Below are positions 8,060 to 43,521 of a stretch of 64,000 nt of DNA, piece by piece. A program made the translations under genes and the position numbers. Location of the stretch: positions 131,579 to 195,578 of the forward strand of contig CAWGBA010000004.1 in assembly GCA_963820735.1 (NCBI GenBank). The letters are read 5' to 3'. The notes under the pieces were generated by a model. The model saw only the letters and a list, made by a program, of their open reading frames with translations. It searched no databases and was not told the DNA's origin. This DNA is from an uncultured Chloroflexia bacterium. Lineage in GTDB: Bacteria > Chloroflexota > Limnocylindria > Limnocylindrales > CSP1-4. Within the stretch, counting starts at the first letter, position 1, and each line of letters starts with the position of its first letter.

Positions 8060-8169
8060 AAAAACCTCCTAGGCGGGTCGAGCGAAACGGGCCGGTTGCG
8101 CGACTCTCCAGTCCGCAGCTCGCACGTTCAACCTTGCTCCAAGGGCAAGGTCAAGAGGATAATCGCCGC

Positions 8170-8988
8170 GTGTTTGCCATCGGTGCGTTCGCCGATCTGT
8201 CCGGCATCTCAGCCAAGGCGCTCCGGCTGTACGACCGCATGGGCCTCTTTCGTCCGGCCTGGACCGACGCCGCCACTCGCTACCGCTACTACTCCGCCGC
8301 GCAGCTTCCGGAGCTGCGCCGGATCGTCGCGTTGCGCAACACGGGCATGCCGCTCGCCGAAATCGCTCGGGTCCGACATCCCCTCGATCTGCGAGCCGCG
8401 CTCGAGCAGCGCCGGCGAGAGTTGGAGGCCCAGCGAGCGGACCTCGAGCGACGGCTTGCGGCGCTCGCGATCCGGTTCGACTCGACGAATGGAGACGATA
8501 CGGACAGCGCGCTCGACACTGCCGATGTCGTGGTCCGAACGCTCGAACCGCAGCTCGTCGCATCTCGAGCGATCGCGTCGCACGAGGATGTCGCCGACGC
8601 CTTCTACGAGCTCGAGACGCACGTTCGCAACGCGGGCGCGAGGGCGCCGCGGCCGCCCGGCGTTGTCCTTGGCGACGACGCTGAAGCCCAGAGAATCTTC
8701 GTGCCCATCCGCCGCCTGGTGCCGGCCGGGGAGCGGATCACCGTGGAGCGACTGGCCTCCGTGCGCGCCGCGACGACGCTCCACCACGGCAGCTACGCCG
8801 GCCTCGGCGAGGCGCGCGCTTCGCTCGATCGATGGATCGAGCGCGCCGGCATGGCACCGTCGGGTTCCCTCCGAATCCTCTACCTCCAGTTCGGCGCCGA
8901 AAGGGAATTACAGGTTCCGTCGGCGTTCATCGTCGAACGCGACGCGGACTTCGTCACCGAGCTGCAGCAGCCCGTCGCCTCAGCCTGA
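8170..8988 (+). CDS. MerR-family transcriptional regulator with GyrI-like effector-binding domain
   Basis: GTG 8170 starts FAIGAFADLSGISAKALRLYDRMGLFRPAWTDAATRYRYYSAAQL, a MerR helix-turn-helix. This is followed by a coiled-coil and a C-terminal GyrI-like region (TTLHHGSYAGLGEA). Confidence 0.8.
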   Translation: MFAIGAFADLSGISAKALRLYDRMGLFRPAWTDAATRYRYYSAAQLPELRRIVALRNTGMPLAEIARVRHPLDLRAALEQRRRELEAQRADLERRLAALAIRFDSTNGDDTDSALDTADVVVRTLEPQLVASRAIASHEDVADAFYELETHVRNAGARAPRPPGVVLGDDAEAQRIFVPIRRLVPAGERITVERLASVRAATTLHHGSYAGLGEARASLDRWIERAGMAPSGSLRILYLQFGAERELQVPSAFIVERDADFVTELQQPVASA

Positions 8989-24001: not shown

Positions 24002-25668
24002 GATTGCGGTCTCCCGCTGCTACCCGTGCTGCCGGATGTGTTCCCTGACAGTGGCAGCACGCGATACACCGTGCCCGACGGCTGTGACGGGATCCCGGCG
24101 ACTTTCTCGAGGTCATAGAGCGCCTGATAGGTCGGCAGGTCGTAGTCGACGCGGATCAGATAGACCGGCCGCTTCCCCAGGAATGCGTCGATGGCGTTCT
24201 GCGCCGATCCATATCCTTCGTCCAGCACGTTCCTATCGTCGATGATCTTCACGTCCGGGCGCTTCCCCTCGACGAACTGGCCGTACCACAACGGCGTGGA
24301 ATAGTTCCACCAGCTAACGATCACGGCATTCGGGTCCAGTGCCGCGAACGTCGCATCCATCCACGAGCGCGCGCCGGTCTCATCGGAGCGATCCTGCTGC
24401 GGGTACCGGTCGGGCACGGGCAGCAGCAAGGCCACGACCAGCACAGCCGCCACGAGCGTGCCACCAATCGCGATCATGTGCCGCGCACGTTCCGATCTCG
24501 AGAAGGTCTCGAGACCACGCCAGATGGCGTCCAGCGCCAGCGTCATCCAGACGATCGCGATCATCAGCGGCACGAGGTAGTAGCGCTCGATGGCGGCGTT
24601 CTCGTAGCCCAGGGCGAAGACGAAGGTCAGACCGAACCACAACGCCGCGAGGATCGCAAACGGCAGGTTTCGGAGGAATGACACGATCGCTCCGGCGATC
24701 GAAAGCACGGCGATGACGCCGATGTTGGCGACGAGCTCGTTCCAGATGAGGTTGAGGCCGCTCCGGAGCGACGGCATCGCGTGGAACGTGCCCTGGAACT
24801 GCTGGCCGAGCACGAGGTACTTGAACCGATCCCAGGTCACCGGGTCGGCGTAATCGAGGGGTGGGTTCATGGCGGCGCGCAGCGGGATGTAGGCGTACAC
24901 GGCCACGGTCGTGATGGCCAGCGCGACGATGCAGGCCAGCGTCACGCGCCAGCGCCGTCGGAGGAGCTCGGGCTCGACGATCAGGACGAACAGGCCGACG
25001 CCGGGCGCCAACAGCACGGTCAGGGCGTGGTTGCCCAGCGAAAGCCCGAACACGATCGAGGCGGCGACGAGCCACGCGGCGTTCCGCCGGTGCGTTCGCA
25101 CGCGCGACTGCCATGCGAGCAGCAGCACCAGCACCAGCGCCGAAAGGAAGATGTGCAGCGCGTGGGGATCGGCGGCGAGTCCCAGCGACCAGGCAAGCGG
25201 GCTGACAGCAAGCGCGATTCCAGCCAACAGGCCGAGCACCGCTCGGTGCGTCAACTGGACCACGACGACGGTCAGCAGAGCGCACGCGCCCGAGACGAGA
25301 ACCGCAGAGAGCAAGTCAGCACGGAATGCCGGGCTGCCGAACGGCTGGAAGACGATGGACGCGAGCCAGTCCAGCAGCGTGTAGGTGGGATAGCCGGTGG
25401 GATGCGCGATCCCGAGGACGGCACCGAGCGTCTGGAACTCGCCGGTGTCCCAGTAGGACACATCCGGAAGTAGGGTCCGAAGATCGAGCGCAAGCGAGAC
25501 AACGAACACGGCGGCAGCCGCCAGCACCGTGGTCCACGTGCCGAAGCGCGATCCGCCGGTGTCCTCGGCAACGATGGGAGCCGCAGGGACGCTGAAGGAC
25601 GTTCCCGCGGCTCGGGGCAGATCCGTGCTGGGCGTCGGGACGCCGGCCGGCGAGGCCTCGATCACCAT
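23998..25668 (-). CDS. DUF2723-family polytopic membrane protein (GT-C-like glycosyltransferase)
   Basis: YWDTGEFQTLGAVLGIAHPTGYPTY motif, many TM helices, large C-terminal soluble domain. Start taken at MVIEASPAG (25668), 1 nt after the upstream gene's stop. Confidence 0.7.
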   Translation of the reverse strand: MVIEASPAGVPTPSTDLPRAAGTSFSVPAAPIVAEDTGGSRFGTWTTVLAAAAVFVVSLALDLRTLLPDVSYWDTGEFQTLGAVLGIAHPTGYPTYTLLDWLASIVFQPFGSPAFRADLLSAVLVSGACALLTVVVVQLTHRAVLGLLAGIALAVSPLAWSLGLAADPHALHIFLSALVLVLLLAWQSRVRTHRRNAAWLVAASIVFGLSLGNHALTVLLAPGVGLFVLIVEPELLRRRWRVTLACIVALAITTVAVYAYIPLRAAMNPPLDYADPVTWDRFKYLVLGQQFQGTFHAMPSLRSGLNLIWNELVANIGVIAVLSIAGAIVSFLRNLPFAILAALWFGLTFVFALGYENAAIERYYLVPLMIAIVWMTLALDAIWRGLETFSRSERARHMIAIGGTLVAAVLVVALLLPVPDRYPQQDRSDETGARSWMDATFAALDPNAVIVSWWNYSTPLWYGQFVEGKRPDVKIIDDRNVLDEGYGSAQNAIDAFLGKRPVYLIRVDYDLPTYQALYDLEKVAGIPSQPSGTVYRVLPLSGNTSGSTGSSGRPQS

Positions 25669-27125
25669 CCCTTCACGACGCCCCAATAGACACCCCATGC
25701 GTTGACCAGCACCGACGCGACGATCAGGCCGACCGTGATGGCATTCGAGCGCCACCGCTCCACGGCAAGCGCGACGAGGATGACGGCAAACGGCGCGAAA
25801 TCATTGCTGAAGCGGTAGCCGAACTGCACCCACCCCTGGCTGAAGTGCATGAGGTTGGCGAGCGCGATCGCGATCGTCGCGAGCGCTGCCCCAGCGACGA
25901 CTCGACGCCGCCAGGTGGCCGCCGCCAGGGGGATCGCCAGGAGGTAGGCAGGGCTGGTCAGGAAAATGCTCATGCCCACCGGATCGGGCTGCAGCACCGC
26001 GCAGTTCTCGTCAAAGATCAGGCCCAATCCGGTCGGCGCGTTGTCGCCCGAGCAGTCGGACGAGGTGATCGGGGTCTTCGGGGGCCAAAGGAGCAGGATC
26101 GGCGCGTTGACCACGATGTAGCGCGGGTCCTCGATTGCCCAGTTTGGGTGGTAGAACGCCGGCACCGGGTGCGTCTCGGTCGTGCGCAGGTAGTCGTACG
26201 CCGGGTGGAACAGGTGCCCGGTCGTGGCCAGGTTGTAGCCCAGCAACAGCGCGACCGGGATGATCGCGCCGACCCCCGCGAAGGCGGCCCGCCGGAGCCA
26301 CGTGCCACCGCCTCCGACGAACGCGAAGAACGGCGCCCCGAAGATCGTCGTCAGCCGCGCGATCGCGGCGGTGCCGTAGAGCAGCCCGGCCACGAACTGC
26401 CGCCACAGGGCTCCCGTGCGTGCCCGGGTGGCGTTCGCCACCGCTGCCAGCTGTTCCCGCCGCTCGGCGTCGAGCGCTGCCGTGATACCCAGGAAGAGAA
26501 AAGTTGAGGCGACGACGTGTGCCAGGAACCAGGTGCTGCCCAGCATGGCCGCGTACCAGGCCACCGTCCCGAAGCCGTAGAACAGCGTGCCGAGAAGGGC
26601 CGCGTCCCGACGCAACGTGACGCGCTGCAGCATCCGCCAGCAGAGCGATACGTTGATTGCCCCGATCACCGCGCAGATCAGCGCGGCATTCGTGCTCAGC
26701 CCCCACAGTGCGACGAAGGGCAGCAGGATGACCGCGGGGAGCGGCGGGAAGGGAAGCAGCGCCTGGCCTTCGGGGATGACCGGGTTGGTGACCCCGGCCG
26801 GTCCGAGCGGCGGTCCGGGGAGGACGTCCTGGAAGTAGCTGTTCGAGACCGGTGAGTCGACTGGGTAGGGAATCGTCACGTGGCCGTGCAGGTATGCGTC
26901 TGCCTGCCAGACGAAGTGGTTGTAGAAATTCTGGCGATCAGGATTGGAAAGGATGTAGACGGCCAGCGCGATGAGGAACAACCCGATCCCGACCAGCGCC
27001 GGATCGACGCGCGCTAGCGCGCGCTCGATCCTTCCATCGGCAAAGGCAACGCCTTCTGCCACCGGCCTTCCGCGCCCTTCGCGGAGCGCAGGGTCACCCG
27101 GGGCCGTTGCTATACTGCCCGACAC
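25662..27125 (-). CDS. Polytopic membrane protein, ArnT/PMT_2-like GT-C glycosyltransferase candidate
   Basis: 487-aa ORF with about 11 TM helices and an early extracytoplasmic loop. Sits between GT-C genes in a glycosylation cluster. Family assignment is tentative. Confidence 0.5.
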   Translation of the reverse strand: MSGSIATAPGDPALREGRGRPVAEGVAFADGRIERALARVDPALVGIGLFLIALAVYILSNPDRQNFYNHFVWQADAYLHGHVTIPYPVDSPVSNSYFQDVLPGPPLGPAGVTNPVIPEGQALLPFPPLPAVILLPFVALWGLSTNAALICAVIGAINVSLCWRMLQRVTLRRDAALLGTLFYGFGTVAWYAAMLGSTWFLAHVVASTFLFLGITAALDAERREQLAAVANATRARTGALWRQFVAGLLYGTAAIARLTTIFGAPFFAFVGGGGTWLRRAAFAGVGAIIPVALLLGYNLATTGHLFHPAYDYLRTTETHPVPAFYHPNWAIEDPRYIVVNAPILLLWPPKTPITSSDCSGDNAPTGLGLIFDENCAVLQPDPVGMSIFLTSPAYLLAIPLAAATWRRRVVAGAALATIAIALANLMHFSQGWVQFGYRFSNDFAPFAVILVALAVERWRSNAITVGLIVASVLVNAWGVYWGVVKGW

Positions 27126-27155
27126 CCTGATCCTTTCCCTGGAGGCCGGTCGGCG

Positions 27156-30100
27156 TTGACTTCGACCCCGGCGCGCGGGGCCGAATCGGTTCGTGGGGCG
27201 CCAGTGCGATCCGTTCGCGCCCGCCCCTCCGTGTCCCCGGCACTGATCATCCTACTCGTCGGCGGGCTGGCGCTCCGTTTCGCAATCGCGTACCTGTTCT
27301 TCCCCCAGTCCGGATTCTCGACGGACCTTTCGAGCTACGCCGCGTGGGCAAACACGCTGGCGCAGTACGGACCGGCTGGCTTCTACGCCAACGCCGGATT
27401 TGCCGACTACCCGCCGGGCTATCTCCTGCTGCTGTGGCCCATCGGCCTGATCGCACAGTCCGGCGGCCTCGGGATGGCCACCGAGGATCTGATCAAGATC
27501 CCGCCGATCCTGATCGACGTCGCGGTGGGGTTGGTGCTCTACCTGCTGGTCAAGGGCTGGGCTCGGCCGCGTGGCTGGCGCTGGGCCGAACGAGCCGCGC
27601 TCGCAGCCGCCGCGATCTACCTCTTCAACCCGGTCACCTGGTACGACTCGGCGCTCTGGGGCCAGACCGACGCTGCGGGAGCACTGGTCATCCTGCTCGG
27701 TGTCGCGGCGCTGATTCGGGGCAACACCGAGGGCGCCGCCGCGCTCGCGGTCGTGGCGGCGATGGTGAAGCCGCAGTTCGGCGTGGTGTTGATCCCACTG
27801 GTCGGCGTCGTCCTCCTGAAGCGCCACCTCTTTGACCCGGGCTCCGGCCCGATCCACCGTCCGCTGGTCGGCGGTCGCATCGGTGAATGGCTCGTGTCCA
27901 ACCAGGGCCCGGCTCGCATCGGGACGGCGTTCCTGGTCGCATGGTTCGTGTTCTTCGCGATGGCGATCCCGTTCGGCATGGGGCCGTACGAGTACCTGAC
28001 GTTCGTTTCCAAGACGGCCGGCGGTTACCCGTACCTAACGGTCAACGGCTACAACCTGTGGGCGCTGATCGGTTCCGAGGGCAATGGCTCGCTCGCATCC
28101 GACGGCCTCTGGTCCAAGGACACGATCCCGCTCCTCGGTCCGCTCCCAGGAGTGGTAATCGGCGGCGTGCTGCTGCTTGCAGGCTTCGTCGTCGGGCTGT
28201 GGGCCGCGTTCCGGCGTGACAACCGCCCCACGATCCTGATCGCGGCCGTGGTTCTATCGGCGGCGTTCTTCGTCCTGCCGACCCGCGTCCACGAGCGTTA
28301 CCTCTTCCCGGTGTTTGCGCTGCTCCCGATCCTGGCCGTGTGGAGCGGACGCTGGCGCTGGGCCACGCTGGCGTTCGCGATCGGGTCGTTCATCAACCTC
28401 CACGCGATCCTGACCAACGCCAATCCGCAGTACGGGACGGACAACGTCGCCAACCTGCCGTTCGGCGACCTCTTCCGCACCTTCCCGTTCGTTGGCCTGG
28501 CCGTCGTGCTCCAGACAGGCGCGTTCCTGTTTGCCGTGTGGCAACTGCGCGGCGCACGAGGCGGCCTCGAGCAGCTGGTCGAGACGCCCGCGCAGCGCCA
28601 CGACGGCCTCGCGACCGTTCCTGCCATCGCGCCACCGATTCCAGGACCGGGCTGGCCGGCCCCCGCTGGCAAGGAGTGGGGCGCACCGGCGTTCGCCGCG
28701 GCGCTTCCCCGGCCGGAGGGCGATTCGCTCTACGCCGCTGAAGCCGACGCCGGCGCTGAAGCTGCCGAGCTCAGCGCCACAGAGGAAGCTGCAGCCCTCA
28801 CCGGCCAAGAAGATGACTCGGGAACCGAGTGGGCCGGTTTGGGCACGTGGATCGACGGCAAGCTCGGCACGCTGCGTCCCGTTCGACGCGATCGCAGTGC
28901 CGAGTTGACGGTGGAGCCCGCAGGCCGGTTCGACCGCGTCGACGCATTGATCCTCGTCCTGCTCACGGTCGGCTCGCTGGCCCTCCGCGCATGGCACCTC
29001 GATCAGCCAAAGGACATGTATTTCGACGAGGTCTACCACGCCCGGACGGCGACGGAGTTCCTCCAGGACTGGCGCTACGGGATCGTCCATTCGATCTACG
29101 AATACACGCACCCGCACATCGCCAAGTACGCCATGGCGCTCGGCATCGAGGCGTTCGGGGACAACAAGGTCGTCAGCACCACGCAGCTGGACGGTCCGGT
29201 GTCCGACGCCGCCATCGAAACGCGCTGGAGTCCGGCTGGGCTCCCTGCGGAGCGCGATGGCGACCGCTTGTACGTCGTCAACGGCACGGACCTGCGCGTC
29301 TACGACCTGGCCACACGACAGCTGATCACGACGATCCCGCTGGACAAGCCGGCCACGGCCGTTGCCGTCAACGACGATGGGCACCAGCTTTACATCGCTT
29401 CCGACGACGGAACGATCAGCCAGCTCGACACGACCGACCTCGATGCACTGCGCACCGACCCTTCGGTGAGCGTCGACGCTCCGACGCCGATCCTGACGCT
29501 CACCGGCACGACCGGAGACGTCGTGCAGCTGGTCGTCGTCGACGATCAGCTCGTAGCTCGCACGAGCGACGGCTGGCTGGCAGCGATCGACCCGGCGAAC
29601 GCCGTCCAGACAGGCACCCTGCACGTGCCCGGCGCGGTGAAGGCCGTGCGGGTGCCCGCCACCGACCAGGTCGTGGTCGACCAGACCAAGGTCACCAACC
29701 TCGAGGAAGAAGCCGGCCTGATCGCCACGGCGCTCGCTGACACGCCCTCGAGGATCCGGCCACTGCTCCAGGGCACGAGCACTCGCGTCGGACTCTCCGG
29801 CTACCTCTCGGATACGGATCGGACGGCCATCCAGAAGGACATGGATGCCGGCAAGCTCCCGGGCGTCACGATCGAGTCGGGACCTGTTGTGGCGGTGAGC
29901 GACCCACAGGGCGTTTCGTTCCTGGACGCCGCCAGCCTCGGGTCGCTGAGCCGGATGACGATCGAAGGTGCCAGCGGCATGGCGCTGGTGGACCGCGGCT
30001 TCGACAACCCGGTCCTCTACCTGGCGGCCGACGGCACGGGCGGACCCCAGCTCATCGAAATCAACATCAACGACACCGGCCCGGCGACAGGGCGGACCCT

Positions 30101-32508
30101 GCAGATGCCGGGCCTGGTCCACGACGTCGTGTGGAACGAGCCCGCCAACCTCGTCCACGTCATCGGCCAGACCTCCGATGGAAAGCCGACGATCTACGTG
30201 GTCGAACCGCACGCCGAATCGGTCTACGCCGATGCTCAGCTGCCTTTCACACCACAGATCACCCTGGCGGACACGCAGCGCGACCGCCCGGAGTCGGATC
30301 GCAGCGACCTGCTGGCGCTTTCTCCGGACGGATCGCTGGCCGTCGTGGACATCGGCCAGAACGCCTTCGCGTGGCGCTTCCCGGGCGTGATCATGGGCAC
30401 CGTCATGCTCGTCTGCATCTACCTGCTGGCGCGCTTCCTCTTCCGCCGGCGCAGCGTGGCGCTCTTCGCCGCGGCGCTCGGGTTGGTCGGCGGCATGTTC
30501 TTCGCCAACGCCCGGATCGCCATGAACGACACGTACGTGGCGGGCTTCATGATGGCCGCGCTGACGGTGTTCGTGCCGCTCTACATGGGCCTCTGGCGGC
30601 GCCGCTGGCAGGTCATCCTGGGCCTGTTCGCGGTGGGCATCCTGCTCGGGCTTGCGCTCGCGTCGAAGTGGGTCGGCGCCTATGCGATCGGCGGCATCGC
30701 GTTGCTCGTCCTGCTGCGCTCGGCGCTCGGCCGGATCATCGCTCTGATGGCGATGATCACGCTCACCGCCGTGCTCGGAGCGCTGGCCGTTCGGGCACCG
30801 GATGTGCCCTCGCCGCACGTCGACGTGTTCTTCCTGGGCTTGATGCTCGTACTGACGGTCGCCCTCGCCGTCGCGATGGTTCGGCGTCCGGTGCGCATGA
30901 CGATGGCCGAGCTGCGCTTCGCCGTCTTTGCGCCGGCCGTGGCCGGGATCGTGCTGATCGCAGGGTCGCTCGCATTCGCTTCGCACCTGCCCGACAGCGG
31001 CTTGTTCTCGGCCCGCGCCGTCTCGCTGGCAGGAGCGGCGGCCTTGCTGCTGAGCGCCGGCTCCTATGCGCTGGCCTGGCTCGCGTCGCGTCGCGGTCGC
31101 GGGCCGCTTGCGCGACGCCGCGTCGTGCCGCCCGACGAGCCGATCCCGTCACCGGCGCCGACCGGCTGGCTGCTGCCCGGCCACGCGGGCGGGATCCCCT
31201 GGCTGTACGCCTTCGCGTGCCTGTCGGTCGTGCCGATCGCCGTCTACATCATCAGTTACATCCCCTGGTTCAACCTGGGCAACCAACTGATCGATGGGAT
31301 TCCCGGCCGGCCACACCGGCCAGACGCTGTGGCAGTTGACGCTCTCGATGTACGACTACCACAACAACCTGCGAGCGGGCCACCCGGCGTCTTCGCCCTG
31401 GTGGGCCTGGCTCCTGGATCTCAAACCCGTCTGGTTCTACCAGGAGGGCTTCGCCAACAACACCACGGGGGTCATCTACGACGCGGAGAACCTCGTCATC
31501 GTGTGGCTGGGCATTCCTGCGATGATCTTCACGGCCTGGGCGGCGTGGCGGCGGCGCAGCCTCTCGCTCACGGTCATCGTGGTGATGTTCCTGGCCATGT
31601 GGTTGCCGTGGTCGCGCATCGATCGGGCCACCTTCCAGTACCACGTCTTTACCAGCCTGCCGTTCGTGGTGCTGGCGCTGGCCTACTTCCTGGCCGAGCT
31701 ATGGCACGGGCCATCGCCCGGCGTCTGGCTGTTTGCTCGCTTCTCGGCGGCTGCGGCGATCCTCGGGCCGCCCCTGCTCTGGCTGGGGCGAGCTCCGCTG
31801 TGCATCATCGCCGGCTCTGCCGCGGCCCACACCGCCGAGAATTCCGGGCAGGGGGTCGCCTGCGGCTCGATCACGCGCTCGACCGACGTGAGCCAGGCTG
31901 CGATGGTCTCGGTGGTCATCCTCCTGATCGGCGCGCTGGCGCTCGGCTGGCAGCTCTGGCTTCTCTACCGGGCGGGCGGCCGCACGGAGCCACTGCGAGT
32001 GGCCGGCGTGCGCATCCCGGTTGAGGCTGCTCCGTATCTGACGCTGATCGCGATCATCGCGATGGTGGTGGTCGTGCCGCGGATCTTCAGCGGCGAGCCG
32101 ATGTTCACGCTCACGGTGAGTGCCGACGAACTTGCCTTGATCGGCCTCGTCGTCCTCGCGATACCTGCGTACCTCGTCCTTCGCGCTCGTGACAGCCGGC
32201 GGTTCGCGCTCGGCATCATGACCGCGGCCGTGCTCTGGTTCGTTGCCTGGTACCCGAACCTGTCAGGACTGCCGATGCCCAACTCGATCGCCAACATCTA
32301 CCAGGGCCTGCTGCCCACCTGGAACTACGACTTCTGGTTCGCGGTCAACAAGGACCCTGCCGCCAAGGGCCCATTGGGCGCCCTGGTGCTCGGCATCCTG
32401 ATCGTCACCCTGATCGTCGTGGCCCTCGCCATGATCGTGGCCTACTGGCGGCGGCCCGAACGCCAGGTCGCCCAAGCCGAGGATGAGGTCTCCGCGCCAG
32501 CGTCCTGA
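27156..32508 (+). CDS. Giant (~1780 aa) double GT-C protein: N-terminal DUF2029/PIG-V-like module plus PMT (GT39)-type module carrying a ~400-aa beta-propeller-like insert (apparent frameshift near 31290-31310)
   Basis: ORF 27156..32024 joins ORF 31294..32508. N-terminal module: DLSSYAAWANTLAQYG..ADYPPGYLLLLWP. PMT module: DE motif YFDEVYHARTA (~29019-29042), then ARIAMNDTY, then the PMT C-terminus GQTLWQLTLSMYDYHNNLRAGHPASSPWWAWLLDLKPVWFY. Confidence 0.7.
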
Positions 32509-33011: not shown

Positions 33012-34223
33012 CTAGACCGGCGAACGGACCTCGTCGGACTCGATCGGGATCGTGTGAGGGTGGGGTGGCTGCGGGATCGGCGCGTGGAAGCCCGACGGCA
33101 GCGCTGCCTGTGCCGCGAGTCGACGGATCACAAAGCCGTAGTAGTCGTCGACCTTGGCGGTGATGCTCTCCCAGCTGAACTGCCGCGCTCGCTCCTTGCC
33201 GGACTCGCCGAAGCGGAGGCGCAACGCCGGGTCACGCAGCAACGTTCCCAGTGCCTTGGCCAGCGCGTCGACGTCCTTGGGCGGAACGAGGAGCGCCTGC
33301 TCGCCGCGTCGAACGACGCCCTTGTATCCGTGAATATCGCTGCACACGATGGCCGTGCCCGCTGCCATCGCCTCGAGCAGCACGATGCCGAACGACTCCT
33401 GGCCGGTCGCGGGCGATGAGTAGATGTCAGCGGTCACGAACGCGCGGTTCTTGTCCAGCTCACTGACGCGACCGAGCAGCTCGACGCCCGTGAGCCGTCG
33501 CGTGGCGATGTAGCGGCGGACCTCCCGCTCCTGCGGGCCGGTTCCGACCACGAGCAGCCGCGCATCGATGCCGTCTCGGCGCACCTGGCGGTAGGCCTTG
33601 AGCAGGTAGGTGAGGCCTTTGCGCGGCTCGAAGCGGCCGACATACAAGATGTTCGGCGTGCCGTCGCGCCAGCGCGCAAACGGCACGACGTTGTCGAAGG
33701 CCCGAAGATCGACGCCGTTGGGGATCACCTTGTAGTCGCCCGGGAAGTACCTCTCGATGAAGTGACGTGCCGCGGCGCTGACGGCGATCCGTCCGTGCAG
33801 CCGGCGCGCAAAGCGTTGGAGCATCCGCTTGCCGAACTCGTACGACGGGCTCCAGCCGGAGTAGGCGTGGAAGGTGGCCACGTTGACGCTCGTCGAGTGG
33901 CGGAGCAGCTGCAGCGACAGGAACGGCACGAACGGCTCGTGAAAGTGCAGCAGGTCGAACTGCTCGTCGACCAGCACGCGTTCGATCAGCTCGCCGTATC
34001 GGTGCGACAGCGTGAGCGTTCCCACCGAGCCGTTGGTCGGCACGCTGATGCCGTATCCCAACCGGATGATGTCGCCCTCACTGGAGCGCTGCGGCCCGTG
34101 GGTGCTGCTGATGATGCGGACATCGTGCCCGCGGGCGACCAGGTTCTCGTACAGGCGCTGGACATGCGCGTTCACGCCGCCCGGAAGCGGGTAGATGTAC
34201 GGCGTGACGAGACCGATCTTCAT
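33012..34223 (-). CDS. GT4 glycosyltransferase, PimA-like phosphatidylinositol mannosyltransferase candidate
   Basis: MKIGLVTPYIYPLPGGVNAHV..., FHEPF, GRFEPRKG, and the E-x7-E region ESFGIVLLEAMAAG. ATGA overlap with the upstream gene. Context includes ino1 and a CDP-alcohol phosphatidyltransferase. Confidence 0.75.
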   Translation of the reverse strand: MKIGLVTPYIYPLPGGVNAHVQRLYENLVARGHDVRIISSTHGPQRSSEGDIIRLGYGISVPTNGSVGTLTLSHRYGELIERVLVDEQFDLLHFHEPFVPFLSLQLLRHSTSVNVATFHAYSGWSPSYEFGKRMLQRFARRLHGRIAVSAAARHFIERYFPGDYKVIPNGVDLRAFDNVVPFARWRDGTPNILYVGRFEPRKGLTYLLKAYRQVRRDGIDARLLVVGTGPQEREVRRYIATRRLTGVELLGRVSELDKNRAFVTADIYSSPATGQESFGIVLLEAMAAGTAIVCSDIHGYKGVVRRGEQALLVPPKDVDALAKALGTLLRDPALRLRFGESGKERARQFSWESITAKVDDYYGFVIRRLAAQAALPSGFHAPIPQPPHPHTIPIESDEVRSPV

Positions 34224-36112
34224 GCGTCGATAGTGCCCGGCTTGGACGAAAGGGGCCGACGCCGGCTGCCGGGATAACCGAGGTCCCGGCCGGTGCCGCG
34301 TCGCAGGAGCGTTCCACCGACATCGTCGCGCAGGGCCCGCGCGTTCTTGCGCGTCTGGTGCCCGAACAGGCGGAACTGCTCGCTCCACGGGTAGGCGCTG
34401 CCTTCGAACGTGGTCTGCCGCTCGGCAATCGCGCGGCGCAAGTCCTCGGTGGTGTGACCCGAGAAGCGCGTGACGACCTGGCCGACGTTGCTGGCGCGGT
34501 GCGCATCACTGCCACCGACCGCGGCGACCCCGCATTCGATGACGAACTCCGGGACGCGTTTCGCCCAGCGCATGGCCGCGGTGGTCGGGTTGAACGCCTC
34601 GATCCCGTCGGGATGAACGCGCGGGTCATCCGCCGCCAGCAGGCGCCTGATCGTCCCTGCCGACGCGCACAGTGGATAGGGCACGAGCGGGTGCGCCACG
34701 ATCGCGATGCCGCCCTGTTCATGGACGCGACGGACCGAGTCGCGCATCGATCCCCACGGGCCGATCCGCTCCTGCATGAAAAGCGCGACCAGGTGGCCGT
34801 TACGAGTCGTGATCTCCTCGCCGACGATCACCTCGATCGGCAGCCCCTTGGCGATCGCCATCGCGCGAGCGGCAACGGCCCCGTCGACACGCTCATGATC
34901 GGTGATGGCGAGCAGTGACAACCCGCGCGCGACCGCCGCGTCGAGGATCGCCTCGACGCCGTCGATGCCGTCGGAGGCCATCGAATGGACGTGCAGGTCC
35001 GCGGATCCCCAGTCATCCATGGGGTTGGGGGTGGCGGCTGCTGCCGGATGCGCGCCTGTCGGCGTCTCTTCCACGTCGTTCATGCGTCGGTGAGCCTTTG
35101 GCGTTGTCGCCTCCGGCCAGATGGGGAAGAACAGCGACCACCATTGGTCCGGTGCCCGACTCACGGTCTCCTCGAGGATGCGCACCTCGTCGGCGATCGC
35201 GGCGGCCACTTTTTCTCGTCGCGATCCGACCTGCGGGACCTGGAGTTGATCGAGGCGGGCCGACCAGCGATCCCAGCCGATGCGAGTCATCGTCACGATG
35301 TAGGTCTCGGCGCCGGTTTCGGCCGCCAGGATCGCGGGCCCGCGGGGAAGGCGTGCCGGCGCACCGAAGAGTGTCACGGCCGCACCTGCACCGCCGATGA
35401 CCCGATCGGCCACCAGCGCGACGCCCTGGCCTGCTGCCAGTCGGGCGGTGAGGTGCTCGGCGACGTCCTCGACTGGGAGAAGTCGCACGCCCAGCTGCTC
35501 GCGGGTGCGTTCGAAGTAGGCGCGAAGAGCCGGGTTGGAAAGTCGCTCCATGGGTCCGGCGATGTCAAGGCTTGCCCTTCGGGCGGCGTAGGCAGCAGCC
35601 AGCTCGACGGAGCCGTAGTGGAATCCGACGTACATCACGCCACGACCGCCAGGAGGCGGGCGGAGGGCTCGCTCGGCGACGTCGGGATTCGCCAGCTCGA
35701 CGCGATCGAGCAGGCCGCCGCGGCGATCAGCTGCCGGTGCGATGGCGCTCTCGGCGTACGTCCGAACCCAGTGCTCGAACGCACTGCGGACGAGGGCGTC
35801 GAGCGCGCGGTCGTCAGTTGCCGCCGTTCGCGCACGTTCGGGGCCGGTTCCGCGACTGGCCAGCTCGACGCAGACTCGGCGCAGGTTGCCGCGCACCAAC
35901 CGGCGCCGTGCAGGCATGGCCGAGTAGCAGATCCGGCCGATCAGGGCGGCCGTTCGCAGCACGAACGATTCGGGAAGTGCCTGGAGCAGGCGAACGCCGC
36001 CAAGGAGCAAGGCGAGCATGACGCGGTCGACCAGCCGCAGCGGCTGCTCATCAGCGTTGCCGGCTGTGGCCGCCGCCGTCATCGAGTGCCGCCCCGGTCG
36101 TTCACCCGGCAT
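34220..36112 (-). CDS. Fusion protein: HtrB/LpxL-family lipid acyltransferase (N-terminal) plus PHP-domain phosphoesterase (C-terminal)
   Basis: The N-terminal ~340 aa resemble the neighbouring acyltransferase (VGFHYGSVELAA...VADRV..GAPARLPRGPA). The C-terminus has DLHVHSMASDG...AITDHE...IVAHP...GGSDAH, the PHP metal-binding histidine pattern. Confidence 0.75.
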   Translation of the reverse strand: MPGERPGRHSMTAAATAGNADEQPLRLVDRVMLALLLGGVRLLQALPESFVLRTAALIGRICYSAMPARRRLVRGNLRRVCVELASRGTGPERARTAATDDRALDALVRSAFEHWVRTYAESAIAPAADRRGGLLDRVELANPDVAERALRPPPGGRGVMYVGFHYGSVELAAAYAARRASLDIAGPMERLSNPALRAYFERTREQLGVRLLPVEDVAEHLTARLAAGQGVALVADRVIGGAGAAVTLFGAPARLPRGPAILAAETGAETYIVTMTRIGWDRWSARLDQLQVPQVGSRREKVAAAIADEVRILEETVSRAPDQWWSLFFPIWPEATTPKAHRRMNDVEETPTGAHPAAAATPNPMDDWGSADLHVHSMASDGIDGVEAILDAAVARGLSLLAITDHERVDGAVAARAMAIAKGLPIEVIVGEEITTRNGHLVALFMQERIGPWGSMRDSVRRVHEQGGIAIVAHPLVPYPLCASAGTIRRLLAADDPRVHPDGIEAFNPTTAAMRWAKRVPEFVIECGVAAVGGSDAHRASNVGQVVTRFSGHTTEDLRRAIAERQTTFEGSAYPWSEQFRLFGHQTRKNARALRDDVGGTLLRRGTGRDLGYPGSRRRPLSSKPGTIDA

Positions 36113-37028
36113 CCATTTCGGCTGCGCGCCGCTCGAGCTCGGCCGCTTCCTCGTCGCTCGTCGGCCACATGGGTTTGAAGGTGAACCACTGCTCGGGCTG
36201 CACGCGAACCATCTGCTCGAGCGCGTCGGCGATCTGCTGCGTCGCGCGCCGGATCTCCGCCTGCGAGCCCTCGGCGACCGTGATCGGATCGAAGTGCGAG
36301 CCGAGGTACGTGCCGTCGGGTCGGCGACGGTTCACCACCGGAACAATCGATGCACCTGTCTTCGCGGCGAGCGTCGCCGGTCCGGCCGGGAGCGTGGTCC
36401 ACTCGCCGAACAGCTTCACGGGCACGTCCGTCGGTCGATAGCCCCAGTCCACCACGAGCCCGAGCACGGCCGGCTGCCGCAGTGCGCGGAAGACGTCGCG
36501 CAGGTTCCTCCAGGGAATGATCTTCACGCCGCGGCGCGCCCGCATTTCCGTGAGCCGTGCGAACAATTCGGGATACTCCGTGTCGTCCGCGAGGCCGTAC
36601 GTCGGGATGCCCCGGAGCGCGCCGGCCGCGGCGAACAGCTCGATGCTGCCGATGTGCCCGGACACGATGATGAGGCCCTTGTCGCGAGCCTCGTGCTCCT
36701 TCCAGAGCTCAACCAACGAGTCGATGCCGTGATCCGGCGCGCCTTGGACGAGCGTCAGCGGCTCGTCGACCGGACGGCTTGGCAGGCGCATGAGTTCCAG
36801 CGCGAACTCGGCGTAGCTCGCGTAGATCTGTCGTGCGAGACGGGCGACTTCCGGGTCGTCAACGCTCGTGCCGAGCACGCGCGCGGCATTCGCCTGGACG
36901 ATGCGGCGTTTCTGCGGCCAGCCGTAGTAGCCCGCCGACGAAGAGCTGGCGAGCGACCGGCGAGCTGACGCGCGGGCTGATGCGGCCGAGCGCGGTCTCG
37001 GCGGCTCGGTAACCGCCGATGACGCCAC
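36102..37028 (-). CDS. HtrB/LpxL-family lipid acyltransferase (PIM acyltransferase PatA-like)
   Basis: SGHIGSIELFA (HX4-type acyltransferase motif region), LVVDWG..VKLFGEWTTLPAGPATLAAKTGA, QWFTFKPMWP. Confidence 0.75.
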   Translation of the reverse strand: MASSAVTEPPRPRSAASARASARRSLASSSSAGYYGWPQKRRIVQANAARVLGTSVDDPEVARLARQIYASYAEFALELMRLPSRPVDEPLTLVQGAPDHGIDSLVELWKEHEARDKGLIIVSGHIGSIELFAAAGALRGIPTYGLADDTEYPELFARLTEMRARRGVKIIPWRNLRDVFRALRQPAVLGLVVDWGYRPTDVPVKLFGEWTTLPAGPATLAAKTGASIVPVVNRRRPDGTYLGSHFDPITVAEGSQAEIRRATQQIADALEQMVRVQPEQWFTFKPMWPTSDEEAAELERRAAEMDAG

Positions 37029-37102
37029 GCTCGCGGGTGCGACGGGCGAGCCGGCGCAAGCCGGCCGATTCGATCCGTCGATGGGGGGAGTAGCGGACGC
37101 CG

Positions 37103-38452
37103 CTATCCGGCGCCCGTGTCTCGTCCGTCATGAACCAGGGAGGAGTCGCGGGCTAATGCGCCGCGGCAGCCTCGGCCTTGCGTGACGACGAGTGCCCGTT
37201 GCCGGCTGTCGCCGACTCGGATGCGGGACGCGCCTCGAGCTCGACCGGGGACGATGCGCCGGGACTTGGCCAAACGCCGCGTCTTCTTGGCACGTGGAGC
37301 CTCGGTGCCGACGAGCGTTTCGTTGTCCTCGCCACGGATGAACGCCTCGACGCGGTTGAACGCGATGTCATCGTGGATCTGGATCGGCGGGCTCTTCATG
37401 AAGTAGCTCGACGGGGCAACGAGTGTGCCCTTGAGGCCGCGGTCCAGGCCCAGCTTGAGGCAGCGGATCGCGTCGGTGATGACGCCTGCCGAGTTGGGCG
37501 AGTCCCAGACCTCGAGCTTCATCTCGACGTTGAGCGGCACGTCACCGTATGTCGTGCCCTCCATGCGGATGTAGCACCACTTGCGGTCGCGCAGCCACGG
37601 CACGTGGTCAGACGGGCCGACGTGGATGTCGTCCGGGTCGAGCTCGTAGTCGAGCATCGAGGTGACGGCGTTGGTCTTGCTGATCTTCTTGGACTCGAGG
37701 CGCTCGCGCTCGAGCATGTTCAGGAAGTCCGTATTGCCACCGAAGTTGAGCTGGTACGTGCGATCGAGGCGAACGCCACGATCCATGAAGAGGCGCGTCA
37801 GCACGCGATGACTGATCGTGGCGCCGACCTGGCTCTTGATGTCATCGCCGATGATCGGCAGGCCTTCCTCGGCGAAGCGGCGCTGCCAGTACGGTTCGCG
37901 GCCGATGAACACCGGGATGGCGTTGATGAAGCCGACGCCCGCCTTGAGCGCCTGCTCCACGTACCACTTGGTGGCCTCCTCGGAGCCGACCGGCAGGTAC
38001 GAGACAACGACGTCGACTTCGCGCTCCTTGAGGATGCCAACGACATCTGCCGTAGGGCCGGGCGCCTTCTCGATCACCTGCGACAGGTACTTGCCCAAAC
38101 CATCGTGGGTCATGCCGCGCTCGACCTTCACGCCGGTGTGCGGGACCTGCTGGAAGACATAGGTGTTGTTGGGCTTGACGTAGATGGCCTCGGAGAGGTC
38201 CTTGCCGACCTTGTTCTTGTCGATGTCGAAGGCGGCAACAAACTCGATGTCACGGATGTGATAGCCGCCCAGGTTGACGTGCATGAGGCCCGGGACGAAG
38301 TCGTCGTCCTTGGCGTCCTCGTAGTAGTAGCGGCCCTGAACCAGGCTGCTGGCGCAGTTGCCCACGCCAACGATCGCCACGCGGATCTTGCCGTCCTTGC
38401 GGCGGGGATGGCGGCCGTTGCCGTTCTGGCTGCCGCTGTCGTTCTTTGCCAT
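37103..38452 (-). CDS. ino1: myo-Inositol-1-phosphate (inositol-3-phosphate) synthase
   Basis: [52 protein letters not shown] and WDSPNSAGV are all conserved MIPS blocks. There is an unusual ~70-aa basic C-terminal extension. Confidence 0.9.
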
Positions 38453-38454
38453 GA

Positions 38455-39117
38455 CTACCGAATCTCCTTTGTGGATTCACGCTCGATGGATTGGTGGCGG
38501 ACCACGACGATCCGCTGTGCGGTGGTGATGACGGCCAGCAGCGCGATCAGCCCCAGGCTGAGGTCGAGCGGCCGCAGGTCCCCCCAGATGCCGGTGATCA
38601 AGAGGCCCAACGTGAGGATCACGATGCGAACCTCCCGGGGCGCCACACCGACGTTGGCCATCCCCGAACCGCCCGTGAAGCCGAGGCTCTCCGCCTTGGC
38701 GCGGGCGTAACTGACCATGAACGCGGCGGCCATCGCCGCTGCTGCGAGGACGGCACCAGTCGTGTCCTGGATCACGGCCAGCCCGTACACGATGCCTACG
38801 TAGATGACTGCCTCACCGGCACGATCGAGCGTGCTGTCGAGGAACGCGCCGAAGATGGACGTCTTGCCAGTCGCTCTCGCGAGCGCGCCATCGAACATGT
38901 CGAAGGCGCCGCCGAAGACCACGAGCAGACCGGCGACGGTCCACCAGCGCGCGCCCGCGGTTCCGGCGGCGACGCAGGCGATCAGAAGTCCGATGACGGT
39001 GAGTGCGTTGGGCGTCAGGCCGACGCGGCCGAAGACACGTGCGAGCGGCTCGACTCGAGCGCGGAACCCGGCGCGTTGCTCTGGGGTCAGCAAGGAACCC
39101 GCCATGGCTGCCTCCAT
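38455..39117 (-). CDS. CDP-alcohol phosphatidyltransferase (PI/PIP synthase PgsA1-like)
   Basis: [27 protein letters not shown] matches D-x2-DG-x2-AR-x8-G-x3-D-x3-D. About 6 TM helices. Start ATG 39117 lies 5 nt after the ArsR stop. Confidence 0.85.
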
Positions 39118-40128: not shown

Positions 40129-41787
40129 GTGACCCCGACGCGCCGGCTGGTGCTGCTCCTCGCGCTGTGCGGTGGCGCGCTTCTCGTGGGGGTCGAGCTG
40201 ATGATCACGGCGGTTGCCCTGCCGTCGATCCTCAAGGACCTTGCCGACTGGACGCAGCTCCGGCGGGCGAGCTGGATCGTCAACGCCTACCTGCTGGCCT
40301 ACATCGCGACGATGCCGCTCGCGGGCCGGGCAGCCGATCGCTTCGGCCTGCCGCGGCTGTTCATGCTGGCGCTCGGATCGTTCGCGCTCGGGTCGGTCCT
40401 GTCGGGAGCGTCGCAATCGCTTGACCAGCTGATCATCGCCCGGCTGGTGCAGGGAATCGGCGGCGGGGCGATCGTGCCATTGGCGACAGCCGGTGCGAGC
40501 CAGCTCTACCAGGGCGATGCGCGGTCTCGTGCGCTCGGCTTGGTCGGAGCGTGCACGTTCCTTGGCATGGCACTTGGTCCGTTCCTCGGTGCGACCGTGC
40601 TCGAGGCGATGGACCTGACGGCAGCTTTCGCGGCCGCCGGGCAGACGCACACGCTGGCCGCGGAACTGCTCGTGCCTTCGTGGCGCTGGATCTTCTACTT
40701 CGTCGCACCGCTGGCGGTCGTCTCGCTCCTCTTCGTCTGGGCGGCGGCACCCGACTGGGAGGAGGTCCACACCCCGGGGCGCATCGACGCGCTCGGTGCC
40801 GGCCTGTTCACCGCCACGATCGGCCTCGGACTGCTGACGCTGACCACGCTTGGCCAACCGGCGCCCGATGAGCCGGTCGAGGGGCTCGCGGTGATCCTCG
40901 GGCCGCCGCTCTACGCCGCGCTGACGCTGATCACCGGCGCGCTTGCGCTCCGGCACTTCCGCAGAACGCCGGACCCGTTCATCGACCTCCGGACCTTCCG
41001 CAACCGCGTCTTCTCCAGCGCCGTGGTCGTCAGCCTGCTGACGGGCTACGGGCTCGCTACGGCGATCATCGGCTCGGCGGTCTTCATCGACCGCGTCCGC
41101 TACGAGGGAGCCGACGAGCAGCGGCTGGTGCTGGGATCGCTGGCGTTGGCCACGGCGGTCGGTGCGCTCGTGTCGGGTTTCGTGCTTCGGTATGTCGGCG
41201 TCGTCGCGCTCGGGTTGGTGGGCCTGCTGGCGGCGGCAGCAGGTCTCGCACTGATGGCCACGCTCGCCCCGGAGACACCGATCACCACCCTGGTCGTCGG
41301 CGTCGTCGTCTTCGGCGCGGGATTCGGCTTGACGGTGACGCCTCGCTCGGCGGCCGCGATCGAAGCACTCGGCCAGAGAGCCGTCGGCATGGCGTCGGCA
41401 GGCGTGACCGTCGCGCGGATGGCCGGGATGGCTGTGGGCCTCGCCGTGCTCACCGGGTTTGGCTCCAACCGGATCCAGGCACTGAGCGTCGTGCTGACCG
41501 ACCAGCAGGCGCGCGACGCGGTTCTGCCGCCCGAGCTGCAGGGGAGGCCGCTCGAGGACGGCCTTGTCGTCAACGCGCTCGAGCGTTGGGCGTCCAGCCA
41601 GGCGGCTGGGATTCTCTCCGGTCTGTTCATCGTTGCGGCCGTGGTGATGCTGATTGCCATCGTTCCCACGCTGGCGATGCGTCAACGCGCAATGCAGGCT
41701 GACTCCGGAGGCGGCAGCATCCCCGCGGATGGGGTTGACACCAACGGACGCGACGAAGCCGCGCGAGGGAGCGCAGCCGCGTTCTGA
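40129..41787 (+). CDS. MFS transporter, DHA2 (EmrB/QacA-like, 14-TMS) family
   Basis: 552-aa ORF. LPSILKDL......WIVNAYLLAYIATMPLAGRAADRFG and LIIARLVQGIGGGAIVP are typical DHA2 motifs. Confidence 0.8.
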   Translation: MTPTRRLVLLLALCGGALLVGVELMITAVALPSILKDLADWTQLRRASWIVNAYLLAYIATMPLAGRAADRFGLPRLFMLALGSFALGSVLSGASQSLDQLIIARLVQGIGGGAIVPLATAGASQLYQGDARSRALGLVGACTFLGMALGPFLGATVLEAMDLTAAFAAAGQTHTLAAELLVPSWRWIFYFVAPLAVVSLLFVWAAAPDWEEVHTPGRIDALGAGLFTATIGLGLLTLTTLGQPAPDEPVEGLAVILGPPLYAALTLITGALALRHFRRTPDPFIDLRTFRNRVFSSAVVVSLLTGYGLATAIIGSAVFIDRVRYEGADEQRLVLGSLALATAVGALVSGFVLRYVGVVALGLVGLLAAAAGLALMATLAPETPITTLVVGVVVFGAGFGLTVTPRSAAAIEALGQRAVGMASAGVTVARMAGMAVGLAVLTGFGSNRIQALSVVLTDQQARDAVLPPELQGRPLEDGLVVNALERWASSQAAGILSGLFIVAAVVMLIAIVPTLAMRQRAMQADSGGGSIPADGVDTNGRDEAARGSAAAF

Positions 41788-42092: not shown

Positions 42093-43521
42093 CTATGGAG
42101 TGTCGTAGCAGCCGCGCGGATCGGCGGGGGGATGGGCGGCGGTGTCGTCGGCCGGGAGGACGTCCTGAAGCGTCGCGAGGACCTGGAGCTTCGGGACGGT
42201 GCCGCGAGGGCCCTCGCTGGTCTGAAGGACCAGCTGCTGCGTGCCGGGTGACGCGGTCGCGATCGAGAAGTCGGTCGCGTGGCGCTTCACCTCGCTGATC
42301 GTGTAGACGTAGCGCAGGTCATCGTCGGTGTAGACCTCCACGATCGCGCCGAGCATGTTGGCGCCGTTCTGATCCTCGGACGAGATCAGCAGCGGCAGGA
42401 ACATGCCGTCTCGAGCGTGGGCGTAGAGATAGGTCGTGCCGAGCTGGCCGGGTTGCCCGAACGCGTCGAGGTACAGCGCGACATCGCAGGGCGGATAGCC
42501 ATCAGGGCCCTGTCCGGGAACGCTCACATCGGGTGAGATCACCGGAAGGTCGATGCGCAGCGACGGAATGATCACGCGAGTCGCAACCGATGGGTCGTCT
42601 GCGAATGGCGTCGGCGTCGGCACGACCGGGGTCGGCAGAGGCGTGGGAAATGGCATGGCCGACGGAGTCGGCGTCGGAGTGACTGTCGGCGACGGCGTGG
42701 GCGACGGCGACGAGGTTGGCGACGGACTAGGCGTCGGAGCAGGTGTGGGCGCTGGCGAGGGCGACGGCGACGGCGACGGCGTTGGCGTCGGAGCAGGTGT
42801 GGGCGCTGGCGAGGGCGTTGGAGCAAGCGTGGAGGTGGGCGACGGAGTACGCGACGGAATCAGCGTAGGTGTGGGCGTGGCCGTGGGCGTCGGCGTCGGC
42901 GGGAACGGCGGGAACGACAGCGCAAACGTCGGCGTTGGCGGCGCGGTTGGACTCGGCGTTGGACTGGGGCTCGGACTGGGGCTCGGACTCGGGCTAGGGC
43001 TCGGGCTCGGGCTCGGACTCGGACTTGGACTCGGCGTTGGGCTCGGGCTTGGACTGGGGCTCGGGCTCGGACTGGGACTCGGACTTGGACTCGGCGTCGG
43101 GCTTCGACGGCTCGGATGCGTCGGGCTCGGACTCGGACTCGGACTCGGCGGCTTGGATCGGCTCGGGCTCGGACTCGGACTCGGCGAGGGTGTCGGCGAG
43201 AGGTCGACGGGGAGTCGGCCTGGGTGTGGGCGACGGAGTCGGAGTCGCGATCACCGGCGACGGCGGCGCCCCGCTTGGCGGTAGGGCCGTAGGGTTGTGG
43301 TAGGGAGTCGCTGAGGGTTGTGCCTGCGCTCCCCCGTACGCGGCACCGCCCTCGCTCGTCGCGGCCGGGGAGCCGTACCACAGCAGCCCGGCGGCCAAGA
43401 GCGTCACGCTTGACGCCATCAGCAAGGCCGGGAAGAGGCGGTCAGCCGCGCGAAGAAGGCGCTCGATTGCTCCTCGGCCGGACTTCATGCGGTCCGATCG
43501 TAGCGCGGGAGCCGGGCACAC
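42093..43521 (-). CDS. Membrane-anchored sortase-like protein with long Pro/Ser/Thr (or Ser/Glu/Pro) low-complexity linker; frame change inside the repeat
   Basis: ORF 42994..43521 supplies the N-terminal anchor ([21 protein letters not shown]). By my manual translation, the frame of ORF 42093..42656 stays open upstream through the repeat to at least 43020 (SPSPS../PTPTP..). The C-terminal domain has sortase-like blocks: [27 protein letters not shown], and LVLQTSEGP in place of TLxTC. Confidence 0.5.
42660..43200. repeat. Low-complexity 6-nt-periodic repeat tract (GGCGTC/GGACTC/GGGCTC units)
   Basis: Runs such as ggactcgggctagggctcgggctcgggctcggactcggacttggactcgg. All frames on both strands are open, which generates several spurious ORFs. 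Confidence 0.85.

Follow-up and report, generated by a model that had tools for sequence, protein, structure and literature searches.

A PHP-domain phosphoesterase in the inositol-lipid operon of a Limnocylindrales bacterium is a candidate phosphatidylinositol-phosphate phosphatase

In prokaryotes, phosphatidylinositol (PI) is made via a phosphorylated intermediate, phosphatidylinositol phosphate (PIP). Which gene supplies the phosphatase that turns PIP into PI is the question raised by an operon on the minus strand of contig CAWGBA010000004.1 (assembly GCA_963820735.1), from an uncultured bacterium of the order Limnocylindrales (Chloroflexota). The stretch that we analysed, here called the window, is 64,000 nucleotides long and all coordinates refer to it unless another contig is named. 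Searches with Pfam and NCBIfam profiles identified six genes in the operon: a PIP synthase-like enzyme (PIPS), the inositol phosphate synthase Ino1 (INO1 in gene orders), two acyltransferases of the HtrB family (AT1 and AT2), a PHP-domain phosphoesterase (PHP) and a PimA-like glycosyltransferase (GT4). This agrees with the content that had been described from the sequence in the original prediction, as does the finding that PHP is the only phosphoesterase of the operon according to domain annotation. The PHP gene occupies 34220..35083 and encodes 287 amino acids, starting at M344 of a 630-residue open reading frame (ORF). Genomes, loci, proteins and families are labelled G, L, P and f, respectively, where they need to be told apart.

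The best available reading of the sequence evidence is that PHP is a PIP phosphatase, to which we assign a probability of roughly 0.55. We favour it because the gene neighbourhood is conserved, an independent domain fusion exists, the chemistry is suitable and the usual phosphatases were not found. The original prediction had given PHP the PIP-to-PI step from operon context, as part of a fusion protein; comparative genomics now ties PHP to PIPS, whereas the fusion is probably an assembly error and the function is still one that we infer. In the proposed pathway, Ino1 would make inositol phosphate, which PIPS would join to CDP-diacylglycerol, giving PIP. The trinuclear metal centre of PHP would then remove the ring phosphate to leave PI, which GT4 would glycosylate and the acyltransferases would acylate.

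The statement in the original prediction that no phosphatase had been firmly assigned to this step is outdated for bacteria. In Bacteroides thetaiotaomicron, BT_1525 (PIPPh) is a PIP-DAG phosphatase of the PgpA family, supported by a knockout and by the accumulation of PIP (Heaver et al. 2022, PMC9246714). No other bacterial PIP phosphatase has been assigned to date, and a 2022 review lists the enzyme outside Bacteroides as unidentified (PMC9385802). Our literature searches found no link between PHP domains and PIP dephosphorylation. The reaction proposed for PHP is that of BT_1525, which is also clustered with a PIP synthase and a MIP synthase; the PgpA fold (PF04608), however, is unrelated, and PHP would be a non-homologous counterpart, an analogue rather than a member of that family. 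If the assignment is correct, the candidate gene closes the PI pathway for these Chloroflexota, and PIP dephosphorylation was invented at least twice, with PHP as a second, independently evolved solution beside the Bacteroides enzyme.

Linkage of PHP to PIP synthase genes

The gene order PIPS-INO1-AT1-AT2-PHP-GT4 was identical in 18 of 18 relatives from two families of the class Limnocylindria. A profile search of a large protein collection recovered nothing beyond close Limnocylindria orthologues, and a scan of genome contigs was likewise saturated by this class. We also searched one draw of 401 Chloroflexota genomes for both PIPS and PHP, with a threshold of E ≤ 1e-25 for PHP. PIPS-like genes were found in 384 of these genomes and PHP matches in 308, the latter count mixing two PHP clades (O and P, below) that E-values do not separate. 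Because PIPS-like genes are so widespread in the sample, inositol glycolipids look, from gene content, like a near-universal trait of the Chloroflexota, and this phylum, which is abundant in soil, appears to have inositol lipids as a core trait.

In families f43, f19, f59, f18, f24, f6, f74 and f37, the coordinates showed PHP and PIPS on the same strand with 0.2–1.4 kb between them, and the search coordinates yielded ten more co-localisations. Twenty PHP loci from outside the Limnocylindrales were fetched, 19 of them from other Chloroflexota classes and one from a family of the same class (f3). In 19 of the 20, representing about 16 other Chloroflexota families, PHP lay inside a cluster for PI and phosphatidylinositol mannoside (PIM) synthesis. 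The usual order was INO1-AT-AT-PHP-GT4-PIPS; one locus had INO1-PHP-GT4-PIPS and two were bare PHP-PIPS pairs. At a further locus, L278 (G429:C112), an 18-bit PIPS-like fragment at 8003-8191 lies just downstream of an intact PHP gene; the genome has no further PIPS match, and the fragment may be a decayed PIPS.

A maximum-likelihood tree grouped all of the linked PHPs but one, together with some unlinked ones, in clade O with support of 100/100. The sole linked exception, a PIPS-adjacent gene from f13, fell in clade P, as did the unlinked PHP paralog of this genome. The paralog (G000:C4:78290-79000) is on the same contig about 87 kb from the window, is compact and is 34–37% identical to the operon gene. 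Judged by its C-terminal sequence, the gene directly upstream of it is MreB-like. In five genomes of the same genus (G001, G002, G008, G020 and G023), the paralog is found ~64–69 kb from the PI operon.

An independent physical connection was found in another lineage, where a compact PHP and a divergent PimA-like GT4 form a single in-frame fusion protein. All 80 of the short-read metagenome loci concerned (L193-L272; example protein P0191) have the fusion in one open frame, and upstream of it lies PIPS-INO1 in 42 loci and INO1 in 17 more. These proteins share with the window gene a compact PHP, free of the insertion domain discussed below, that is tied to PI genes. They differ from it in that their PHP groups with the sister clade P rather than with clade O, and in that the partner is the divergent GT4, not an acyltransferase. 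It is an even proposition that the compact PHPs of clades O and P together are the missing PIP phosphatases of most Chloroflexota and of the high-GC soil lineage with GT4::PHP, coupled physically to a PimA-like transferase to which the dephosphorylated lipid would be handed on as PI.

The phosphatases that might otherwise perform the step were sought by family. PgpA (PF04608) had no match in this genome, nor in any of 60 Limnocylindria genomes with a completeness of 90% or more. One family, f2, consists of streamlined Limnocylindrales with genomes of 1.0–1.4 Mb (G025-G040). The PHP orthologue is kept in all 16 sampled f2 genomes, and the six-gene PI/PIM cluster in all eight with fetched loci. 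Searches for other phosphatases in this family gave no PAP2 match in six genomes, an IMPase match in two of six and no PgpA match in three.

Several observations weigh against a role for PHP in PIP dephosphorylation. PHP was not matched in at least 76 of the 384 Chloroflexota genomes with PIPS; one of the PHP-less cases is a closed 1.36-Mb genome that carries INO1-GT4-PIPS and has no PHP match anywhere, and in f81 and f17 the INO1-AT-AT-GT4-PIPS clusters lack PHP. Conversely, of the 17 genomes lacking a detectable PIPS, 9 (one of them closed) gave a PHP match, and in some families the clade-O PHP sits elsewhere in the genome, unlinked. Beside the PHP-less clusters no substitute phosphatase was recognised among ten neighbours judged by eye with no family search (they resemble PurA, TruB, glutamate dehydrogenase, Lgt, ParB and similar proteins). 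The nearest solved relatives of PHP are an exoribonuclease and a nucleotide phosphatase. In addition, the GT4-fused PHP belongs to clade P, alongside the unlinked paralog, so that either clade could carry the activity. Finally, Corynebacterium glutamicum, a control that has PIPS, gave no PHP_C match; the candidate therefore does not obviously fill the mycobacterial gap, and PHP probably does not solve the mycobacterial case.

Profiling of PHP next to ino1 and pgsA1 homologues, proposed with the original prediction as a check, thus gave a divided answer: the linkage holds in many Chloroflexota families, but co-occurrence is not strict. The link between PHP and PIPS is strong, not obligatory, and other enzymes must do the step in several lineages.

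The same data bear on whether PHP acts in the inositol-lipid pathway at some other point. It might take the phosphate off only once the lipid has been glycosylated or acylated. Its substrate might instead be inositol monophosphate or a nucleotide by-product (CMP, GDP), or it might be a phosphodiesterase that remodels PI glycolipids. The tightest conserved adjacency is indeed that of PHP with GT4 rather than with PIPS, it is GT4 to which PHP is fused in the other lineage, diesterases such as RNase AM are among the PHP relatives, and PI clusters work without PHP in many lineages. Nevertheless, one of the bare PHP-PIPS pairs, in f24, has neither GT4 nor acyltransferases nor Ino1 beside it, PIP dephosphorylation is the only unfilled step of the encoded pathway, and the streamlined relatives that lack PgpA, PAP2 and IMPase still need it. 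We therefore consider these other roles unlikely, and the PIP phosphatase assignment remains preferred.

Domains, metal ligands and fold of PHP

Residues 372-445 of the 630-residue ORF matched the Pfam PHP family (PF02811; 38.5 bits, threshold 26.4) and residues 522-567 matched PHP_C (PF13263; 39.6 bits, threshold 21.3). The PHP motifs quoted in the original prediction are real: HVH, DHE, GH, AHP and SDAH are all present, and invariant in 19 orthologues. They contain the nine metal ligands H374, H376, D381, H406, E432/E433, H440, H474, D536 and H538, which in the numbering of the PHP gene are H31, H33, D38, H63, E89/E90, H97, H131, D193 and H195, again invariant in the 19 orthologues. In a wider alignment of 34 sequences, E89 was conserved in at least 90% of the sequences and the remaining eight ligands did not vary.

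An AlphaFold2 model gave a distorted (beta/alpha)7 barrel of the PHP type with good confidence (pLDDT 86.2). The barrel is followed by a long C-terminal helix, residues 233-260, and then by a low-confidence tail. The helix is cationic and amphipathic, with a hydrophobic moment (muH) of up to 0.60, and in each of the 19 orthologues the final 60 residues carry a net positive charge. Within the tail, the motif GRDLGYPGxRxRP (PHP residues 265-277; window 34232-34270) is invariant in the 19 Limnocylindrales orthologues, and GRDLGYP..R.RP is nearly invariant in the wider alignment. AlphaFold predicts this motif to be disordered, and matches from other families end before it; it may serve for docking.

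Among known PHP enzymes are phosphomonoesterases, for example histidinol-phosphate phosphatase and Cv1693, a pAp 3'-phosphatase. The latter takes a phosphomonoester off a ring that bears a second phosphate, a reaction chemically analogous to that proposed for PIP. The nearest solved proteins by sequence were RNase AM (9etk, 7ug9) and Cv1693 (2yb1). Foldseek gave a probability of 1.00 against 7ug9, 2anu, 3e38 and 2yb1, with the best fold matches to the PHP core of RNase AM, the compact TM0559 (2anu), BVU_3505 and PsfC; Cv1693 was also matched.

These relationships would also fit a TrpH/RNase AM-type nuclease or nucleotidase with a housekeeping function that resides in the operon with no role in lipid synthesis. 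The solved structures closest in sequence are of this kind, the Joint Genome Institute (JGI) names the orthologues 'phosphoesterase TrpH', and clade-O PHPs are unlinked in some families and present in certain PIPS-negative genomes. However, the scores against the profiles for RNase RNM/TrpH (NF047791; 68.8 bits, cut-off 375) and 3',5'-nucleoside bisphosphate phosphatase (NF041577; 57.1 bits, cut-off 400) fell far below the family cut-offs. The helical insertion domain of about 85 residues found between the two halves of the barrel in RNase AM and Cv1693 has no counterpart in PHP in the alignments to 9etk and 7ug9, where PHP profile positions 87 to 94 span chain residues 83-171 and 87-177, respectively. 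Despite several rearrangements, PHP has stayed within PI clusters, with its start and stop codons overlapping those of either neighbour, and a PHP was independently fused to a PimA-like domain. A housekeeping role is accordingly the least probable of the functions considered, and a PIP phosphatase continues to account best for the gene.

The same comparison indicates where PHP stands in the superfamily. It shares the PHP barrel and all of the metal-binding motifs with the TrpH/YciV group (RNase AM and Cv1693), but it lacks their insertion, has the C-terminal cationic helix and tail, and is found in a lipid-synthesis gene context. TM0559 of Thermotoga maritima resembles it in being compact and free of the insertion domain and gave the best target-normalised TM-score (0.70–0.73), but it is only ~20% identical to PHP and its function is unknown. 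The score against the CehA/McbA family metallohydrolase profile (NF038032) was 74.6 bits with a cut-off of 80, although some sources still name PHP orthologues CehA/McbA. On sequence grounds, PHP is classed as a phosphoesterase of the TrpH neighbourhood that lies outside the characterised families.

The junction between AT2 and PHP

The 630-residue ORF exists as originally predicted, at 34220..36112 on the minus strand, with an acyltransferase domain followed by the PHP phosphoesterase. The idea that it is a natural fusion was not borne out. AT2 and PHP are separate genes, in the same order, in the 18 relatives, where AT2 stops 4–8 codons past a conserved 'FFPIW' and the PHP start codon usually overlaps the stop of AT2 in an ATGA or GTGA. 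They are also separate in 97 of 97 further Limnocylindria loci, so that the question of whether relatives conserve or split the fusion has a clear answer: 115 of 115 other loci are split, and the window is the one fused locus among 116.

For the 97 further loci, the junctions were scored by a script, which called 94 split, 79 of these with a 4-nt overlap between AT2 and PHP, and three fused (L020, L075 and L117). All three fused calls were rejected. Reading the sequence of L117 revealed split genes, and by the coordinates of L020 and L075 the AT2 frame overruns the beginning of the PHP match by just 52 nt. PHP is normally a separate cytoplasmic protein of ~270–290 amino acids, translationally coupled to its neighbours.

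A three-frame reading of the window explained how the long ORF arises. The ancestral ATGA is kept at M344 ('MNDVEET...'), its TGA now being in the +1 frame, and the AT2 frame runs into PHP through PHP's own start codon. Therefore, a single frame change is sufficient to make the 630-residue ORF, and the change that abolished the AT2 stop has to fall in the 11 codons that separate 'FFPIW' from the ancestral start codon of PHP (35084..35116). An exact-pattern scan of metagenome contigs for a same-strain junction found no match.

Frame changes are not confined to this junction. Comparison with a genome of the same genus (G022) over 55 kb revealed about five frame switches in the window, at ~18490, ~18970, ~19390, ~31300 and ~36930, and the switch at ~31300 breaks a PMT-domain gene into two ORFs. 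The last of these lies in AT1, which is frame-shifted at ~36931-36937; its first ~65 codons, from the start ATG at 37131, are in another frame. At this point AT1 reads GGCGGGC, one base beyond what the intact LFVGGYYGWP reading of the relatives needs. A frameshift also affects the PHP paralog, which lies outside the window on the same contig. Together these switches point to indel errors across the assembly, which comprises 4.2 Mb in 14 contigs and is 64% 'complete'.

Could the fusion nevertheless be real in this strain, the product of a recent 1-nt mutation giving a bifunctional protein in which the phosphatase is tethered to a membrane-associated PIM acyltransferase? The ORF is open with both domains intact, the ATGA overlap puts a fusion one mutation away, and the GT4::PHP proteins, being genuine fusions, demonstrate tolerance of tethering. 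A protein from a metagenome contig, P0148 (593 amino acids), is a second clean-looking AT2::PHP ORF, albeit of uncertain quality. Against this stand the single occurrence among the Limnocylindria loci, the frame errors in the adjoining AT1, the PMT gene and the PHP paralog, and the low completeness of the assembly. Moreover, the multi-domain metagenome matches are single-member clusters, and those that were read (e.g. P0008, P0015, P0149, P0163 and P0167) hold out-of-frame stretches. We regard a real fusion as doubtful. Since the genes are split in relatives, the ATGA is retained and the assembly is rich in indels, the 630-residue fusion is very probably an assembly artefact, and the '620/630-aa bifunctional protein' of the record should not be annotated as a natural fusion.

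Multi-domain 'PHP+GT4' and 'AT+PHP' proteins from metagenomes (P0008, P0015, P0016, P0018 and P0014) had also been considered as Rosetta-stone fusions. They were rejected on account of long out-of-frame stretches and contigs with fragmented gene calls; such metagenome 'fusions' are mostly frameshift artefacts of error-prone assemblies.

The other operon genes and their surroundings

The first gene of the operon (38455..39117, minus strand) encodes a PIPS-like CDP-alcohol phosphatidyltransferase (Pfam CDP-OH_P_transf). Its ORF extends to 39468, with a likely start at M118 (39117). The CDP-alcohol phosphotransferase (CAPT) motif DX2DGX2AR...GX3DX3D is present as DMFDGALAR...GAFLDSTLD. Scores against the NCBIfam profiles for archaetidylinositol-phosphate synthase (NF040950; 137 bits, cut-off 180) and PIP synthase (NF045883, PIPSynth; 123 bits, cut-off 170) were below the cut-offs, and inositol phosphate is the presumed substrate because the Ino1 gene adjoins. 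That gene, for inositol-3-phosphate synthase, is at 37103..38452 on the minus strand and matched TIGR03450 over residues 23-372 (E 8.9e-160) and Pfam Inos-1-P_synth. Its conserved part stops near 37313; the remaining ORF tail is probably read-through.

Both acyltransferases are HtrB/PatA-like and on the minus strand. AT1 (36102..37131, with an ORF at 36102-37028) matched Pfam Lip_A_acyltrans at 1.7e-30 and contains the motif HIGSIE. AT2 corresponds to residues 1-343 of the 630-residue ORF (35084..36112) and has the HX4E motif HYGSVE. Residues 31-325 of AT2 matched PF03279 (Lip_A_acyltrans; E 2.7e-19, 69.9 bits, threshold 22.3), while the score against the NCBIfam PIM acyltransferase profile (PRK07920/NF005919, the PatA equivalog) was 117 bits with a cut-off of 209. 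The PimA-like GT4 at 33012..34223 on the minus strand matched Glycos_transf_1 and Glyco_transf_4 of Pfam. It probably starts at M56 (34223), where its ATG overlaps the PHP stop as ATGA. In the Chloroflexota sample, PIPS-like genes usually adjoin a PimA-like GT4 gene.

The mycobacterial pgsA1-patA-pimA operon corresponds to Rv2612c-Rv2610c. The window operon resembles it in combining a PIP synthase-like enzyme, a PatA-like acyltransferase and a PimA-like GT4, and differs in adding Ino1, a second acyltransferase and PHP.

Divergent from the operon is a gene for an MFS transporter (40129-41787, plus strand), with an ORF containing a sortase domain beyond it (42093-42656, minus strand). On the other side, a giant gene of ~2,400 codons (25146-32490, plus strand) is convergent to the PI operon and encodes PMT, PMT_2 and PMT_4TMC domains (protein O-mannosyltransferase, GT39-like). 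A PMT gene also flanks the PI cluster at the metagenome locus L001.

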